Part shown: piece by piece, positions 30,547 through 36,970 of the stretch
Layout: each line of letters opens with the position of its first letter
Position numbering within the stretch: position 1 is the first letter of the stretch
NCBI GenBank assembly: GCA_052168235.1
Contig: JBQLZK010000002.1
Location: 224,001-288,000 of the forward strand
Direction: 5' to 3'
Source of the DNA: Thainema sp.
GTDB taxonomy: Bacteria; Cyanobacteriota; Cyanobacteriia; Phormidesmidales; Phormidesmidaceae
Length of the DNA stretch: 64,000 bases
Position numbers and translations under genes: made by a program
The notes under the pieces: generated by a model
Seen by the model: the letters and a program-made list of their open reading frames with translations, nothing else
Told to the model about the DNA's origin: nothing
The model's database searches: none

Positions 30547-30681
30547 ATGACACGACTCTCCAATCTTGCTCGCAAAAAGAACATCCATTACTTCCTAATC
30601 TACTTCACTGACCTGTTCGGTACTCAGCGCGCCAAGCTTGTCCCTGCGGCTGCAATTGACGAGATGGCCGCTAGTGGTGCA
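30547..30681 (+). pseudogene. Truncated duplicate of the glnT 5' end (~45 codons)
   Basis: ...YFLIYFTDLFGTQRAKLVPAAAIDEMAASGA matches the 35660 gene start; similarity ends just before the HIP1 site at 30685. Confidence 0.9.
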
Positions 30682-30841
30682 GATGCGATCGCGCTTCTCA
30701 GAATCTGCATGCTCCAAATCCAACGAATTTTCAGGATTGATTGTTGCAAGATTGAAGATGTAAGCGGGAATACTGAGAAGTGGATCTGCTTAACCGCTGC
30801 TTCATTCTTCTCTGCACTAGCTCTCCGAAGTTTTACTGATT

Positions 30842-32572
30842 ATGTCGCGCCTCCTCGTCACGCAGTATCAATCTGAAGTTGATAGCCTCATCCGCTATGG
30901 TGGGTCGCGCAATGAAGCCAGCATTCGGCGGGCGTTTGAAAATTTGCTGAACCAGTACTGCAAGCCGCGCAACTACATGCTGGTGCCAGAGCTGGACTAC
31001 AAGACCAAGTTCAATACGACGGTTAGGCCCGATGGCACAGTGAAGGATGCTATTCGCCTAGAGCATGGCTGGTGGGAGAGCAAAGACGAATACGACGTGC
31101 TCGATGAGGAAATTGAGAAGAAGTTTGCTAAGGGCTATCCCGACGAAAATATTTTGTTTGAAGACTCCCAGACGGCGGTGCTGTATCAGCATGGGCGGGA
31201 GCAGTTGCGGGTGTCGATGCGCGATGCCGATGAGCTGGACGGGCTGATCGCCACGTTTGTCGATTACGAACGGCCTGAAGTGCGGGACTTTCGGACGGCG
31301 ATCAAAGCCTTTCGCGATGATATTCCTCACATTCTGGAAGCGCTGCGAGATCAAATTCATCAGGCCGAGCGAGAAAATGAGCGGTTCCGGGAACGCCGCA
31401 ACACGTTTCTGGAAGTCTGCCGCCAGTCCATCAACCCGGAAATTGAGATCTTCGACATCCATGAGATGTTGATTCAGCACATTCTCACGGAGGATATTTT
31501 CACCAATATTTTCCATGAGTCGCAGTTTCACCGCGAAAACAACATCGCGCGGGAAATCTCAGAAATTCTCGCCACGTTTTTTACGGGAGCGACGCGCAAG
31601 AATACGCTGAAAAGCATTGAGCACTACTACGCGGTGATCCGCCGCAAGTCGGAAAACATCGCCAATCACCACGAAAAGCAGAAGTTTCTCAAGGCGGTGT
31701 ATGAGAACTTTTACAAGGCGTACAACCCCAAAGCTGCGGATCGGCTGGGCATTGTCTACACGCCGAATGAAATTGTGCGCTTCATGATTGAGAGTGCCGA
31801 TTATTTGACCCACAAGCATTTTGGCAAGCTGCTGAGTGATCCGGGGGTGGAGATTTTAGACCCCTGCACGGGTACGGGCACCTATGTGACGGAGCTGATT
31901 GAGTATTTGCCAACCGATAAGCTGGAGCACAAATATAAGCATGAGATTCACTGCAATGAAGTGGCGATTTTGCCCTATTACATTGCGAACTTGAATATTG
32001 AGTTTACCTATCAGCAAAAGATGGGTAAGTACGAGGAGTTTAAGAATATTTGTCTGGTGGATACACTGGATCACTGCAGTGCAGCAGGCCACCAGTTTGA
32101 CCTGTTTGCTATGAGTGTGCAGAACACGTCGCGGATTCAGCAGCAGAACGATCGCACCATCTCTGTCATCATCGGCAATCCGCCCTACAACGCCCACCAG
32201 GAAAACTTCAATCAGCGCAACGCTAACCGCCCCTACCAAAGTATCGATAAGGCCATCAAAGACAGCTATATCAAGGAAGGCACTGCCCAGAACCAAATCG
32301 TTGTCTACGATATGTATACCCGCTTCTTTCGCTGGGCAACGGATCGATTAGGCAAGAACGGAATCATCGCGTTTATTACTAATCGCTCTTTCATCGACTC
32401 GAAAACCTTTGATGGCTTTCGTAAATGTATTGAGCGAGACTTTGACCATATCTACATTGTGGATACTCAATCAGATGTGAGAAACAATCCCAAAATCTCT
32501 GGCACCAAGAACAACGTTTTTGGCATTCAAACCGGAATCGCTGTGATGTTTTTAGTAAAAGCGCAGGGCTAG
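30842..32572 (+). CDS. Type IIG/ISP-like RM enzyme, nuclease + N6-adenine methyltransferase part
   Basis: RPDG...WWESKD PD-(D/E)xK-like motif; GIVYTP; ILDPCTGTG (motif I); IGNPPY (motif IV); no helicase motifs. Confidence 0.88.
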   Translation: MSRLLVTQYQSEVDSLIRYGGSRNEASIRRAFENLLNQYCKPRNYMLVPELDYKTKFNTTVRPDGTVKDAIRLEHGWWESKDEYDVLDEEIEKKFAKGYPDENILFEDSQTAVLYQHGREQLRVSMRDADELDGLIATFVDYERPEVRDFRTAIKAFRDDIPHILEALRDQIHQAERENERFRERRNTFLEVCRQSINPEIEIFDIHEMLIQHILTEDIFTNIFHESQFHRENNIAREISEILATFFTGATRKNTLKSIEHYYAVIRRKSENIANHHEKQKFLKAVYENFYKAYNPKAADRLGIVYTPNEIVRFMIESADYLTHKHFGKLLSDPGVEILDPCTGTGTYVTELIEYLPTDKLEHKYKHEIHCNEVAILPYYIANLNIEFTYQQKMGKYEEFKNICLVDTLDHCSAAGHQFDLFAMSVQNTSRIQQQNDRTISVIIGNPPYNAHQENFNQRNANRPYQSIDKAIKDSYIKEGTAQNQIVVYDMYTRFFRWATDRLGKNGIIAFITNRSFIDSKTFDGFRKCIERDFDHIYIVDTQSDVRNNPKISGTKNNVFGIQTGIAVMFLVKAQG

Positions 32573-32586
32573 ACAAGGGGCACAGA

Positions 32587-34116
32587 CAAGGGGCTTAAGC
32601 CCCTTGTTCATAAGGGAGGGGGAGAAGCATGAGCAAGGCGAAAATCTATTACTTTACGCTGCAAGATGAGCAGACCAAGGAAGAAAAGCTGGAGTGGTTT
32701 GAGCAAACCCGTCTAGAGCAAATCCTGTTTGAGCATATCACCCCAGACCGCAAGCACAACTGGGTGAATTTGACCGACAACGATTTTGATGACTTCTTGC
32801 CGCTGATTGATAAGCAGGTAAAGGCAAGTAAGTCACAAGAAGCTGTTTTTCAGCTTTTTTCAGCGGGGGTTAAGACTCAGCGCGATGAGTGGGTTTATGA
32901 CTTCTCAAAAGAAGCGCTAATTGAGCGCATGAAGTATTTCGTCGAGGTATATCAAGAGCGTCTAAGAGATGGATCGCGACGAAATTTAGACATCAAGTGG
33001 GATCGTGAGCTTGAAAAATATTTGACTAGTAACGTCAAGAAGAGTTTTCATACATCTAATATAGTTCAAAGTATTTACCGACCGTATACAAAACAGTATC
33101 TCTATTTTGATAAGCATTTCAATGGAATGACTTATCAACTTCCAAGTATTTTTCCATCAGCAAAGAAACCTAATAAGGCTATTTGGATTAAATCGGGTAT
33201 AGATGCTCCGTATTTTCATTGGGTTGTAGAGCACATCCCTGATGTGCTTACAAACGGTGGCTCTCAATGCCTCCCCCTCTATCGCTATGACGAAAACGGA
33301 ACCCGCATCGACAACATCACCGACTGGGCATTAGAGCAGTTTCGGCAACATTACAAAGCAGAGTTAGACCAAGCAGCGTCTAAGGCAGCGTCAGGCAAGG
33401 GGCTTAAGCCCCTTGTTCCCCACACAGATGTAGAAAAGCGCAGCGCAGAACAAAACGATCGCTCAGGCGAACCGGGCAAGGGGCTTAAGCCCCTTGTCTC
33501 AGCGGAGCCCCTTGTTCCCCATACATGGTGGTTTGTAACTTTCGTGACTCATAACGCTCGCGTATCCGAACGCATGGTTACTTACGGCGTCAAAAAAGGG
33601 GAACCGCTTATCTTTTCAGCCGAAGATCAAATCTTTATTGCTGAGCAGATTGCTGAAGCTGTCAAACGGTACGAAATTGCGATCGCCGCCTTCAATGTTC
33701 TACCCGATCACGTCCACATGGTGGTTGCCGCATCAACCGAAGCAGAACTGAACGAAAAGATCCGCAAAATCAAAGGTTTTAGTTCTCACCAATATCAGCG
33801 ATCGCGAGACTGGGATAAAGGTCAGCATGTTTGGGCGCAAAAATTTAACCGACAGGCGATCGAAAATGAAATTGCCCTCACTGAGATTTTGGAATATGTG
33901 CTGAATAACCACACTAAACATGCTGAACGCTGGGGCAATGAACTCATTACGATATGGAATGAGGGTGTTACTCCTGGGAACAAGGGGCTTAAGCCCCTTG
34001 TCTTAGAGGGGCCCCTTGCCTCTAGTCGGCCTCTTGCCGAAATTGTGCGAGAAGTCTGCGTTCCGCTTGAAGAGCTTTTCAGCTCTGGAGGGGGAACAAG
34101 GGGCTTAAGCCCCTTG
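32587..34116. repeat. Five copies of 20-bp perfect palindrome CAAGGGGCTTAAGCCCCTTG
   Basis: Copies at 32587, 33396, 33477, 33981, 34097; half copies near 32573, 33506, 34011. Confidence 0.95.
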
Positions 34117-34749
34117 TCTGACCAAGTTGACCAGGCAGAAATCACCAAACTCGACATCTTCCACTACACCTACGCCGTCCTCCACCATCCCGCCTACCGC
34201 ACCAAATACGAACTCAACCTCAAACGCGAATTTCCTCGCCTGCCCTACTACCCCAACTTCCAACAGTGGGCCACCTGGGGCAAAACCCTCATGGATCTGC
34301 ACCTCACCTACGAAACCGCCGCACCCTACGGCCTCGAACGCATTGATCAATCCGGCGTAGGGGCGAATGGCCATTCGCCCCTACAGGCATCGTTAATTCC
34401 CGAAGAAGACACCCCCGCCAAACCCAAGAAAACCCCCAAACCCAAACTCAAAGCCGACAAAACCCAAGGCCATATCATCCTCGATACCGATACCACCCTT
34501 ACCGGAGTGCCCGCCGTTGCCTGGGACTACAAACTCGGCAACCGCTCCGCCCTGGAGTGGATACTCGATCAATACAAAGAAAAGAAACCCAAAGATCCTA
34601 CGATCCGAGAACTCTTCAACACCTACCGCTTCGCCGATTACAAAGAGCACGTCATCGACCTACTCCAGCGCGTCTGCACCGTCAGCGTCGAGACGATGAA
34701 AATCATCCACCAAATGCCCGACACTGTAGAACATGAAGGCGAGGCATGA
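32629..34749 (+). CDS. Type ISP-like C-terminal specificity subunit with in-frame RAYT insertion
   Basis: GVKTQRDEWVY, YRPY, NITDWAL..F..HY, ITKLDIFHY.YAVLHHPAYR.KY..NLKREFPRLP, LGNRSALEW; own purine-rich RBS. Confidence 0.85.
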   Translation: MSKAKIYYFTLQDEQTKEEKLEWFEQTRLEQILFEHITPDRKHNWVNLTDNDFDDFLPLIDKQVKASKSQEAVFQLFSAGVKTQRDEWVYDFSKEALIERMKYFVEVYQERLRDGSRRNLDIKWDRELEKYLTSNVKKSFHTSNIVQSIYRPYTKQYLYFDKHFNGMTYQLPSIFPSAKKPNKAIWIKSGIDAPYFHWVVEHIPDVLTNGGSQCLPLYRYDENGTRIDNITDWALEQFRQHYKAELDQAASKAASGKGLKPLVPHTDVEKRSAEQNDRSGEPGKGLKPLVSAEPLVPHTWWFVTFVTHNARVSERMVTYGVKKGEPLIFSAEDQIFIAEQIAEAVKRYEIAIAAFNVLPDHVHMVVAASTEAELNEKIRKIKGFSSHQYQRSRDWDKGQHVWAQKFNRQAIENEIALTEILEYVLNNHTKHAERWGNELITIWNEGVTPGNKGLKPLVLEGPLASSRPLAEIVREVCVPLEELFSSGGGTRGLSPLSDQVDQAEITKLDIFHYTYAVLHHPAYRTKYELNLKREFPRLPYYPNFQQWATWGKTLMDLHLTYETAAPYGLERIDQSGVGANGHSPLQASLIPEEDTPAKPKKTPKPKLKADKTQGHIILDTDTTLTGVPAVAWDYKLGNRSALEWILDQYKEKKPKDPTIRELFNTYRFADYKEHVIDLLQRVCTVSVETMKIIHQMPDTVEHEGEA
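33355..34140 (+). mobile_element. REP-associated tyrosine transposase (Y1 HUH) domain with flanking palindromes, in frame in the RM subunit
   Basis: WFVTFVT, VLPDHVH (HUH, 33709-33717), KIKGFSS, VWAQKF, EYVLNN (Tyr codon at 33895). Confidence 0.82.
34357..34384. repeat. GTAG-type REP-like palindrome inside the coding frame
   Basis: gtaggggcgaatggccattcgcccctac, translated VGANGHSPL. Confidence 0.85.
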
Positions 34750-34753
34750 TGGT

Positions 34754-34840
34754 GCTGTGAGCAACCATTTCAAACTCTCCGATACCAAGAACAACGTCTT
34801 TGGCATTCAAACCAGAACCGCTGTCATGTTTTTAGTAAAA
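34754..34840 (+). repeat. Diverged duplicate of the MTase gene 3' end
   Basis: Aligns ungapped with 32474-32560 (accaagaacaacgt.tttggcattcaaacc.gaa.cgctgt.atgtttttagtaaaa). Confidence 0.9.
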
Positions 34841-34860
34841 ACTGCTGAGGAGAAAAAGCC

Positions 34861-35130
34861 ATGATTCAACCTACTTTGTTAGAGAAACTAGAGGTATTAC
34901 CAGAATCACTACAAACGGAAGTGCTGCATTATGTTGAATTTCTGTTAGAGAAACACCTCAAAAATAAACCACCTAGCCTTTTAGAATTACGGGAAGAATT
35001 ACAGCAGGAATTAGCGCAACTCACGCCGGAAGAAGCGGAAAAGCGTTATGGATATGGTAGCCTGAAAGGCCAGATTATCATGTCTGATGATTTTGACGAG
35101 CCGCTAGAAGATTTAGCAGAGTATATGTAA
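34861..35130 (+). CDS. DUF2281-type antitoxin
   Basis: LPESLQTEVLHYVEFLL...GSLKGQI.MSDDFDEPLED. Confidence 0.85.
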   Translation: MIQPTLLEKLEVLPESLQTEVLHYVEFLLEKHLKNKPPSLLELREELQQELAQLTPEEAEKRYGYGSLKGQIIMSDDFDEPLEDLAEYM

Positions 35131-35131
35131 C

Positions 35132-35521
35132 ATGCCGATCCTTTTAGATACTCATGCTGTCCTTTGGTATGTTGAGTCAGATCCTAGCCTTAGTGCTAAA
35201 GCTAAGGCTATTTTAGATGCCAAAAAGAATCTGTTTTTTAGTACTGCTAGCCTGTGGGAAACTGCCATCAAGCTCAATGTCGGTAAACTCCAAATCACTT
35301 CGTCATTTAATCAGCTTCTGATTCGGCTTGAGTTCCTGAATATGGAAATTTTGCCGATCAATACAGAAGATCTCAATACTTATATTGGTCTACCTTTATC
35401 GAAGAATCACCGTGATCCCTTTGACCGTATTTTGGTGGCTCAATCCATTAACCATTCAATGCCTATCTTGAGTGGTGACGAGAAATTTGATTTGTATCCA
35501 GTTCAGCGGGTGTGGGAATGA
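35132..35521 (+). CDS. vapC: PIN-domain VapC toxin
   Basis: ILLDTHAVLW, SLWE.AIK, HRDPFDRILVAQ. Confidence 0.9.
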   Translation: MPILLDTHAVLWYVESDPSLSAKAKAILDAKKNLFFSTASLWETAIKLNVGKLQITSSFNQLLIRLEFLNMEILPINTEDLNTYIGLPLSKNHRDPFDRILVAQSINHSMPILSGDEKFDLYPVQRVWE

Positions 35522-35544
35522 GCAAGGCAAAAATCTATTACTTT
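35518..35544 (+). repeat. Duplicate of the specificity-subunit 5' end
   Basis: atgagcaaggcaaaaatctattacttt, 26/27 identical to 32629-32655; ATG overlaps the vapC TGA. Confidence 0.9.
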
Positions 35545-35659: not shown

Positions 35660-36970
35660 ATGACCCAACCCCTCTCTGACCTCGCCCGCGAAAAAAATAT
35701 CTGCTACTTCCTGATCTCCTTCACCGATTTATTCGGCACCCAACGCGCCAAGCTTGTTCCTGCTGCTGCAATTGACGAGATGGCCGCTAGCGGAGCGGGA
35801 TTTGCCGGATTTGCCACCTGGCTCGACATGACGCCTGCCGATGCCGACATGTTTGCAGTTCCCGACACTGATAGTCTATTCCAGCTACCTTGGAAACCCG
35901 ATGTCGCCTGGATGCCAGCGGATTTGTTTACGCCGAGGATGGATGCGATCGCACAAACGCCGCGCATGGTGCTTCAGCGAGTCCTCCAGCAGGCGCGAGA
36001 CATGGGCTACAGCGTCAAAACGGGGGTGGAATGCGAGTATTTTCTGCTGTCACCGGATGGCGAGGCGCTGTCTGATCCCTACGATCGCCAGGTGAAACCC
36101 TGCTATGACCAGCAGGCACTGATGCGGCGGTTTGATGTGATTGCGGAAATCTGCGATGCCATGCTGGCGCTGGGTTGGGGAGCCTACCAGAACGATCACG
36201 AAGACGCCAACGGTCAGTTTGAGATGAACTGGATGTATGCCGATGCGCTGATCACGGCGGATCGGCATGCGTTCTTTAAGTACATGGTCAAGTCCATTGC
36301 CGAAAAGCATGGTCTGCGAGCCACGTTCATGCCCAAGCCGTTCGCGCACCTGACCGGGAATGGCTGCCACACTCACCTCTCAGTGTGGGACACCAGCGGC
36401 ACAACGAATCTATTTCACGATCCAGAAGGCGAACTAGGTCTGTCGTCACTGGCCTACAACTTCATTGGCGGCGTAATGCATTCAGCATCAGCGCTTTGCG
36501 CCTTTACCAATCCAACCATTAACTCCTACAAGCGGATTAATGCGCCCACCACCCTGTCCGGCGCAACTTGGTCGCCCAATACCGCCAGCTACAGCGGCAA
36601 CAATCGCACCCATGCCATCCGAATTCCTGACTCTGGACGGTTTGAGCTGCGGTTGGCCGATGGTGCAGCTAATCCCTATTTACTCGCAGCGGCAATGGTT
36701 GCGGCAGGACTGGACGGCATTGCCCAGAAGCGTGACCCTGGCCCCCGCTGTGACAACAACAACTACACCGAGCCGCTGCCACAAGGTTCAGCGAAGCCTC
36801 TGCCTGCCAATCTATTAGATGCCTTGCGGCAGTTGGAGCAAAATACCGTCTTCCAGGATGCGATGGGAGCAGAGTTTGTACAGTCTTATCTCAAGCTCAA
36901 GCATCAGGAATGGAACAGCTACCACGCTCAAATTACGCCGTGGGAACGGGAAACGACGCTGGATTGTTAG
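35660..36970 (+). CDS. glnT: GlnT-type glutamate-ammonia ligase / gamma-glutamylmethylamide synthetase-like
   Basis: FTDLFG.QRAKLVPA, GAGFAGFATWLD, NDHEDANGQFEMNW, TFMPKPF..LTGNGCH, NNRTH. Confidence 0.88.
   Translation: MTQPLSDLAREKNICYFLISFTDLFGTQRAKLVPAAAIDEMAASGAGFAGFATWLDMTPADADMFAVPDTDSLFQLPWKPDVAWMPADLFTPRMDAIAQTPRMVLQRVLQQARDMGYSVKTGVECEYFLLSPDGEALSDPYDRQVKPCYDQQALMRRFDVIAEICDAMLALGWGAYQNDHEDANGQFEMNWMYADALITADRHAFFKYMVKSIAEKHGLRATFMPKPFAHLTGNGCHTHLSVWDTSGTTNLFHDPEGELGLSSLAYNFIGGVMHSASALCAFTNPTINSYKRINAPTTLSGATWSPNTASYSGNNRTHAIRIPDSGRFELRLADGAANPYLLAAAMVAAGLDGIAQKRDPGPRCDNNNYTEPLPQGSAKPLPANLLDALRQLEQNTVFQDAMGAEFVQSYLKLKHQEWNSYHAQITPWERETTLDC

Follow-up and report, generated by a model that had tools for sequence, protein, structure and literature searches.

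Results

The DNA analyzed here is a window of 64,000 nt from Thainema sp. (assembly GCA_052168235.1, contig JBQLZK010000002.1, positions 224,001 to 288,000 of the forward strand), and all coordinates refer to this window. At 32629-34749 (+), we found an open reading frame (ORF) that forms one uninterrupted frame of 706 aa and in which a nuclease domain of the Y1 HUH type lies within the C-terminal part of a restriction-modification (RM) enzyme. An earlier note on this DNA had described the gene as a REP-associated tyrosine transposase (RAYT; REP, repetitive extragenic palindromic sequence) that was inserted in frame, with its own palindromes, into an RM specificity subunit. The open frame and the two host segments were located as described there: the first segment ends with NITDWALEQFRQHY (33313 to 33354), the second starts with ITKLDIFHY at 34141, and the 262 codons between them constitute the in-frame insert (33355-34140, +). 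Since empty alleles retain 4 residues in the loop, the net insert amounts to 258 codons, and the loop measures 276 residues in the window versus 18 in empty alleles.

A Pfam scan of the ORF placed Type_ISP_C in two stretches (E = 5.6e-92) around a Y1_Tnp domain (PF01797) at aa 328-426, which scored above its cut-off (E = 2e-13, 50.8 bits versus 23), in agreement with the domains anticipated from the letters. No splicing domain was detected by Pfam in the ORF. All of the motifs previously listed for the insert were recovered, with FVTFVT starting at 33532, PDHVH at 33703, KGFSS at 33772, VWAQKF (listed as VW..KF) at 33829 and EYVLNN at 33892. The Y1 HUH core (33526-33963, +), which is supported by the PF01797 match, an AlphaFold2 (AF2) model and structural matches to Y1 transposases, contains H361 (33709), H363 (33715), W402, the catalytic Y423 (33895), N427, H428 and H431, so that the HUH and catalytic Tyr residues are indeed intact; the HuH-to-Y distance is 62. 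Both junctions of the insert were bridged by Logan contigs from runs that may be related to the source sample, one spanning 33004-33403 with 0 differences and another spanning 33994-34369 with 3 differences. Of the sampled words, only 5-6% were contained in RNA runs (n = 5).

The host enzyme is encoded by two ORFs. The upstream ORF (30842-32572, +), with Pfam matches to ISP_coupler, N6_Mtase and Eco57I, covers the N-terminal portion, with PD-ExK nuclease, coupler and N6-adenine methyltransferase (MTase), of a DrdV-like Type IIL RM enzyme that is split. It aligns with residues 1-578 of DrdV (PDB 7LO5; phmmer, E = 6e-202) and keeps NPPY and the nuclease residues E25, D64, E79, K81 and K94, whose roles in DrdV are taken from bioRxiv 10.1101/2021.01.06.425610. 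In the ORF that carries the insert, the first host part (32629-33354, +), comprising the end of the MTase fold and a variable target-recognition region, matches DrdV residues 588-839, and the conserved second part (34141-34749, +) matches residues 842-1026. The order nuclease, coupler, MTase and target-recognition domain, without a helicase and with the catalytic residues kept, is thus distributed over two ORFs. By these three matches, the host is a Type IIL enzyme that is divided between two genes and whose insert is located between DrdV residues 839 and 842. The RM identity proposed earlier is therefore retained, but the gene encodes the C-terminal part of a split enzyme and not a separate specificity subunit. 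The earlier note placed the two host segments nearly adjacent in Type ISP/IIG C-terminal domains, and the DrdV positions and the 18-residue loop of empty alleles are in line with this. The same split with the same new start recurs in four further loci (L009, L010, L089 and L130), and single-chain carriers exist as well (L006, L008 and L211).

Most homologs are empty. In all 117 empty cyanobacterial-type homologs, NITDW and ITK lie 18 residues apart, compared to 225-297 residues in 16 Y1 carriers; one protein without the upstream motif was left out. The query of this search was an empty allele, so that these counts are no estimate of frequency. In 80 metagenome loci, chosen because they contain the upstream motif, the loop was 18 residues long in 61 and 17 in 1, and it was extended by 4-44 residues in 13; Y1 was present in 2 and DUF559 in 1, and 2 were unreadable. 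Repeat-only inserts were also present in the Type IIL loop of metagenome alleles. Both empty alleles and other inserts therefore exist at the same loop. In at least three alleles, the loop is filled by DUF559 nucleases with their own repeats. One of these alleles (L130) shows 85.6% DNA identity to the window over 32571-33353 and then carries DUF559 in place of Y1. Across the three (L089:4109-6160, L130 and P0323), DUF559 is in frame, and the accompanying repeats belong to two different families, which read PSPxGEG and PLGKGxSRGD.

The insert site coincides with the end of the variable recognition region (44% identity in the N part versus 79% in the C part). An N-part identity below 60% was observed in 86% of 90 close empty pairs versus 16 of 16 carrier pairs; empty alleles thus shuffle the recognition region nearly as often as carriers, and the insert is therefore not needed for shuffling. 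The second host part of the window (34141-34749) is nearer to empty alleles than to carriers, with 96% identity (sampled segments) to the empty alleles P0245 and P0263 versus 68-84% to carriers. A candidate sign of flank co-conversion, the motif WAL..FR upstream of the loop in all 16 Y1 and both DUF559 carriers versus 0 of 117 empties, was not upheld; it was dropped as evidence because the search had been seeded with another haplotype and because the same flank occurs in 61 of the 80 alleles, all of them empty.

We then considered the distribution of the Y1 family. Relatives of 388-1236 aa (n = 46) were all RM fusions, 12 at the Type IIL loop and 34 in Type IIG enzymes, where the insertion point lies directly ahead of the GGFDxxIGNPPY motif; a further 51 relatives were short. 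Scanning of 51 longer profile matches yielded 47 RM fusions, 1 fusion to a cobalamin-pathway protein (CbiA/GATase_3) and 3 proteins without another domain. At the level of genome loci, 49 of 69 lie within RM genes, at the Type IIL loop or at a single fixed methylase loop of Type IIG enzymes; both junctions share one frame in 32 of them, 9 are open up to a contig end and 8 are broken. The remaining 20 loci are free (5 beside an RM gene and 15 without an RM hit). The family occurs as one copy per genome, with no near-identical copies within a genome, and no relative was matched in 72,556 plasmid records (E 1e-8). Of 117 long fusion rows, which are partly redundant, 114 have preserved the HuH, Tyr and N[HR]xKH motifs. 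The dN/dS of the Y1 core could be estimated for 8 of 21 fused pairs and was 0.04-0.13; in the remaining 13 pairs, synonymous sites were saturated and pN was 0.09-0.13. Fused copies are thus under purifying selection, and the module is old and constrained, since synonymous sites are near saturation and dN/dS is low. One decayed case, P0105, has lost its motifs in both host and insert.

Alignment of the module with two free relatives (L004 and L011) showed that similarity begins and ends at the palindromes. In one of them (L004:5626-6519), the Y1 module is in frame with the 3' end of a DUF2281 antitoxin gene, far from RM genes, and the joint consists of about nine tandem 15-nt half-palindromes reading ETRGL. 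The cobalamin-pathway protein (P0109) carries the family member on its C-terminus, with several in-frame palindrome-coded peptides. Other free members with palindromes are located beside empty Type IIG genes or within a Type I RM operon (L030, L057, L058, L065 and L052), and since free members adjoin empty RM genes, the tie of the family to RM loci is independent of fusion.

Four perfect copies of the palindrome CAAGGGGCTTAAGCCCCTTG lie in the gene, at 33396, 33477, 33981 and 34097, and 0 matches were obtained in 100 shuffles. They are translated as KGLKPL three times and as RGLSPL once, consistent with the earlier reading as KGLKPLV or RGLSPLS. Two KGLKPL copies are found in the left linker (33396-33415 and 33477-33496), the second being followed by a half copy at 33506-33525. 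The third (33981-34000, KGLKPL) is part of the Y1 tail, where free relatives read LKPLVE, and the fourth (34097-34116, RGLSPL) forms the right border of the module, just beyond which similarity to the free L004 and L011 stops. The earlier note had proposed two bracketing palindromes on each side; of these, the copy at 33981 lies within the conserved tail of the Y1 domain and not outside it, and a fifth copy (32587-32606) is located in the 56-nt gap between both RM ORFs. This gap site is also occupied by a palindrome in L010 and, at the gene junction of two DUF559 alleles, in L089 and L130; in other loci it holds other small genes, such as a DUF2281+PIN pair in L009. Contigs from two runs that may be related to the source sample contained 18-nt duplications of a palindrome half at the 33981 copy, with the frame kept.

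Genome-wide, counting of the 20-mer, which the earlier note had proposed, gave 8 exact copies and 11 copies within 2 mismatches in the window genome, which has one member of the Y1 family. The exact 20-mer was present in 22 of 401 genomes of the phylum, with up to 73 copies, and in the genome richest in palindromes (73) the RM-fused copy is the sole family member. The Y1 family was present in 2 of 21 other 20-mer-positive genomes versus 0 of 47 negatives, a third match among the positive genomes being another RAYT type. At related loci, a CA-N16-TG palindrome was found within 700 bp of 58 of 69 loci, compared to 1 of 1380 shuffles. Palindrome variants of different lineages differ in both arms; the covariation count (6 of 8 pairs) is inflated, its 18 rows having been picked as palindromes, and shows only such both-arm differences. 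The GTAG/GTGG foot consensus was absent at the 5 window copies and at 89 copies in related loci. In one genome (G249, loci L232-L246), the 20-mer lies mostly within longer composite intergenic repeats with common flanks, and 0 of 16 distinct copies inspected there fell within a frame of at least 120 codons.

The domain belongs to the Y1 HUH superfamily by its profile, its HuH and Tyr residues and its TnpA fold. As had been proposed, its structure was predicted, and the AF2 model (pLDDT 84) matched IS200-type TnpA with Z scores of 13.5 (2EC2, 99 residues, root mean square deviation [rmsd] 2.8) and 13.4, and TnpA-REP with a Z score of 9.4 over 116 residues (rmsd 3.5). A full-length AlphaFold model (pLDDT 46.7, pTM 0.30) was too poor to place the insert, and its Foldseek hits were left unused.

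The class of the domain was assessed using the definitions of Quentin et al. 2018 (PMC6006769). The Tyr motif reads YVLNNHTKH in the window and YxxxN[HR]xKH in the family, and the class 2 signature Y---NP was observed in 1 of 238 family rows. The NCBIfam model NF047646 gave 54.8-61.3 bits versus a curated cut-off of 80, a weak test because the YxxNP-type RAYTs of the same genome also score below it, and NF033573 gave 36-40 bits versus 55. In a 48-row tree, 10 class-2-type references, drawn from few cyanobacterial genomes, formed a clade (99/96) that excluded the 31 family rows, and 7 class-1-type references formed another (99/98) that excluded the family as well; monophyly of the family itself was weak in this tree (62/85). 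One class 2 trait is present, namely, cognate palindromes that flank the gene (58 of 69 loci) and disperse in genomes. Canonical TnpA-REP is further characterized as a monomer that cuts its single-stranded cognate REP in vitro. What remains of the RAYT assignment is thus an intact Y1 HUH domain with cognate palindromes, but the domain scores below the NCBIfam cut-off, lacks Y---NP and the GTAG foot and falls outside the RAYT clade. It would act like a REPtron and is not filed as a canonical RAYT.

Three other assignments were rejected. For subclass 2.4 (RAYT group 4) as the nearest family, motif, spacing and tree all disagree: this subclass is described as having a long and variable HuH-Y distance (median 88) and YIxNNP (PMC6006769), and the distance had a median of 62.5 in 114 fusion rows versus 90-105 in L231, L248 and L250. 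IS200/IS605 TnpA (class 1) was rejected on N instead of Q at Y+4, the single copy and a position outside the class 1 clade. NHVH, YV[VI]xEQ and the CnGA foot of Quentin class 3 were not found, and the domain is set apart from class 3 by the description of that class. The window palindrome was not found by a text search of the two supplements of the same study.

Mobility was assessed on trees and identity comparisons. State counts were taken from a 61-row tree; the "free" labels of a 238-row tree include fragments without context. Free and fused states were intermixed and require 5-6 changes at the least; grouping of all Type IIG-fused copies in one clade was rejected (p-AU 7e-58), and Type IIL copies nested among the others. 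Host loss would explain many of the free copies, and at least one real relocation to a nonhomologous site is indicated because Y1 occurs in two host classes, Type IIL and Type IIG. In Type IIG hosts, Y1 and flank identities were poorly correlated (rho 0.22 and 0.15), and so were the upstream and downstream host segments (rho -0.04). Among Type IIL carriers, Y1 identity followed the host C part (rho 0.79) and not the recognition region (rho 0.13). On the host tree, Y1 carriers occupied scattered positions, corresponding to 9 changes of which no fewer than 2 are forced.

Further features surround the gene. In the second host loop, an unrelated double-foot GTAG REP of 28 nt (34357-34384) is read in frame as VGANGHSPL; it has 44 exact copies in the genome, and homologs hold decayed versions or other repeats at this loop. 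The idea that the fused Y1 enzyme serves this abundant REP was rejected, since the REP belongs to other, YxxNP-type RAYTs of the same genome. Downstream lies a relic second junction (34756-35544, +) made up of a repeat of the MTase gene end (34756-34840, 86%), a DUF2281 and PIN toxin-antitoxin pair (34861-35521) and a repeat of the subunit start (35518-35544), and the same layout occurs in L008 and L088. The junction between MTase and recognition domain is a cargo site, holding a DUF2281+PIN pair, other small genes or a palindrome (window, L008, L009, L088 and L003), and the relic junction after the gene in three loci resembles what a single crossover at the MTase end would leave behind on integration of a new specificity half. 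The RM island is flanked by a degenerate duplicate (30556-30674 and 35672-35790; 81.5%, 119 bp) of the 5' end of a glutamine-synthetase-like gene. Octamers of GCGATCGC (HIP1) adjoin both borders of the island at 30685 and 35616; this position may be due to chance, because the octamer is common (8963 genome copies).

Discussion

Taken together, a reading that we favor with modest confidence is that a distinct REP-associated Y1 HUH lineage is a translated, putatively active passenger that hitchhikes in a permissive surface loop of RM enzymes. The module (palindrome, linker, Y1, palindrome) is in frame, its catalytic residues are kept under purifying selection, and it is found free as well as at two nonhomologous RM sites. 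At the Type IIL loop, it competes with DUF559 nucleases that carry other repeats. Of the two options named in the earlier note, hitchhiking on a defence gene is the better supported, since a passenger fits better than a domesticated shuffler when unrelated DUF559 cargo sits at the same codon in a near-identical allele and empty alleles shuffle too.

By analogy with its family, the Y1 domain would fold independently on flexible linkers, be expressed through the signals of the host gene, bind the palindrome as a single-stranded hairpin, nick beside the hairpin via a phosphotyrosine and then rejoin the strands. Such cleavage and rejoining could give rise to new palindrome copies within the linkers of the domain, at the junction of the two genes and elsewhere in the genome and might occasionally move or free the palindrome-bounded module. 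Routine spread would occur by hitchhiking: because RM genes are often transferred and recombine at conserved blocks on either side of the loop, the module could pass between alleles, and the frame would be kept because the host enzyme stays functional. Allele exchange at these blocks suffices to fit the observed patterns and would make homing unnecessary. The notion of a REP-RAYT-REP element inserting without breaking the frame thus survives as an in-frame module with cognate palindromes, but a recent autonomous insertion is not supported: the module is old and also spreads through allele exchange.

Several observations weigh against the passenger reading. The window genome has just 6 palindrome copies beyond the locus within 2 mismatches. 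The link between enzyme and repeat is weaker genome-wide than at the locus, because 19 of the 21 other 20-mer genomes are without a clade member, among them those with 54 and 28 copies; the repeats may persist after loss of the enzyme or spread by other means. The genome with 28 exact copies (G057), 99% complete, has no PF01797 match. Neither a target-site duplication nor a guide tetranucleotide was found at the examined borders. The correlation among Type IIL carriers (rho 0.79) would equally fit one old insertion that was inherited. Finally, hitchhiking alone would not retain catalytic residues, and selection for catalysis is itself inferred.

A more far-reaching formulation is put forward only tentatively, namely, that the family is a third Y1 HUH lineage between IS200 transposases and RAYTs and a non-splicing mobile protein domain, which would use its own palindromes as ends, enter fixed RM loops in frame across many phyla, be active in the fusion, rival DUF559 and possibly add a defence function.

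Among the alternatives, domestication is unlikely but survives best. The RM enzyme would gain from a second nuclease that nicks single-stranded invader DNA or promotes specificity swaps, and host selection would keep the active site. The single copy per genome, the strong purifying selection, partners that are almost only RM enzymes, the unrelated DUF559 nuclease at the same loop, the insert site at the end of the variable recognition region and the five free copies adjoining RM genes would all suit such a role. A benefit through shuffling of specificity is unsupported, given that shuffling is almost as frequent among empty alleles, and domestication is further opposed by the predominance of empty homologs, by the 15 of 69 loci that are free without an RM hit and by the repeat-only inserts that share the loop.

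We consider it improbable that the module is an autonomous site-specific element whose Y1 domain excises it as single-stranded DNA, in the manner of IS200, and reinserts it at the exact codons of empty alleles, i.e., homing without splicing. The identical site in Type IIG hosts of many phyla, the scattering of carriers on the host tree, a window C part that is nearest to empty alleles and a modelled fold nearer to IS200 TnpA than to TnpA-REP point in this direction, as does the finding that hosts about 70% identical carry Y1 domains just 30-40% identical, and vice versa. This incongruence is explained by recombination, because the host segments are shuffled against each other too (rho -0.04), and near-identical copies within a genome, copies on plasmids and a conserved border tetranucleotide are all lacking.

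An inert relic, kept merely because it must fold without harming the host protein, would be in line with scores below both NCBIfam cut-offs, the 8 broken loci among 49 embedded ones and the joint decay of host and insert in P0105; it is very unlikely given the motifs kept in 114 of 117 fusion rows, the fresh palindrome duplications that preserve the frame and the RM-fused copy as sole member in the genome with 73 palindromes. An assembly artefact, conceivable with five identical 20-mers inside 1.5 kb and named by the earlier note as a possible misassembly, is practically ruled out by the run contigs across both junctions and by the same fusion at 7 further genome loci and 2 metagenome loci, which as independent loci already refute it.

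Life of an HUH nuclease inside RM loops is thus real, recurrent and apparently undescribed. No description of Y1 or DUF559 domains nested in RM enzymes was found in the open literature, subscription journals being outside the scope of the search, and PADLOC is without a model for the Y1 domain. The finding points to an overlooked niche in RM loops, occupied by nucleases that bring their own palindromes, which a Y1 survey discarding long fusions would miss; the survey by Quentin et al. 2018 excluded long fusion proteins (PMC6006769). In Type IIL and IIG enzymes, these loops are sites at which 200-280 additional residues are tolerated, and the arrangement shows that hairpin-associated nucleases can move between host genes and live within defence proteins. 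How RAYT-like enzymes spread and are maintained in one copy has been named an open question (Bertels 2017, PMC5581495). Because empty, Y1-filled and DUF559-filled alleles coexist and the module relocated at least once, mobility and host benefit are testable with isogenic alleles.

Among known systems, the host resembles DrdV (PDB 7LO5; bioRxiv 10.1101/2021.01.06.425610), with which it aligns colinearly from residue 1 to 1026 and shares the nuclease and MTase motifs; unlike DrdV, it is split near residue 580 and carries a 258-residue insert (839/842) and a REP in the second loop. With REPtrons (PMC6006769, PMC8266576 and PMC3479197), the family shares the Y1 HUH fold, the single copy, flanking cognate palindromes that are dispersed in some genomes and, as in subclass 2.4, palindromes within coding frames. 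It differs from them in being mostly embedded in RM proteins, in having YxxxN[HR]xKH instead of Y---NP and perfect CA...TG palindromes without a GTAG foot, in lying outside the RAYT clade and in its HuH-Y distance (62 in the window versus 80-105 in most subclass-2.4-like copies seen). It also shows evidence of gene relocation, whereas Corneloup 2021 reports no evidence of tnpA-REP mobility (PMC8266576). Class 3 of Quentin et al. is similarly described as intermediate and flanked by atypical hairpins, and subclass 1.2 shares the terminal His at Y+8 (PMC6006769). Intragenic REPs and Rickettsia palindromic elements (PMC3733652 and PMC3184786) are also palindromic DNA translated in frame in host loops, but they are short non-coding-type repeats, whereas here a whole enzyme travels with the repeats. 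IS200/IS605 TnpA shares the DHVH motif and gave the best structural matches (Z scores of 13.5 and 13.4), but the family has N at Y+4, forms no identical multicopy elements and lies outside the class 1 clade (99/98). Inteins and homing endonucleases also involve a nuclease that is read in frame at one set position of its host gene and is present in some alleles and missing from others, but HUH chemistry targets single-stranded hairpins, which the empty allele lacks.

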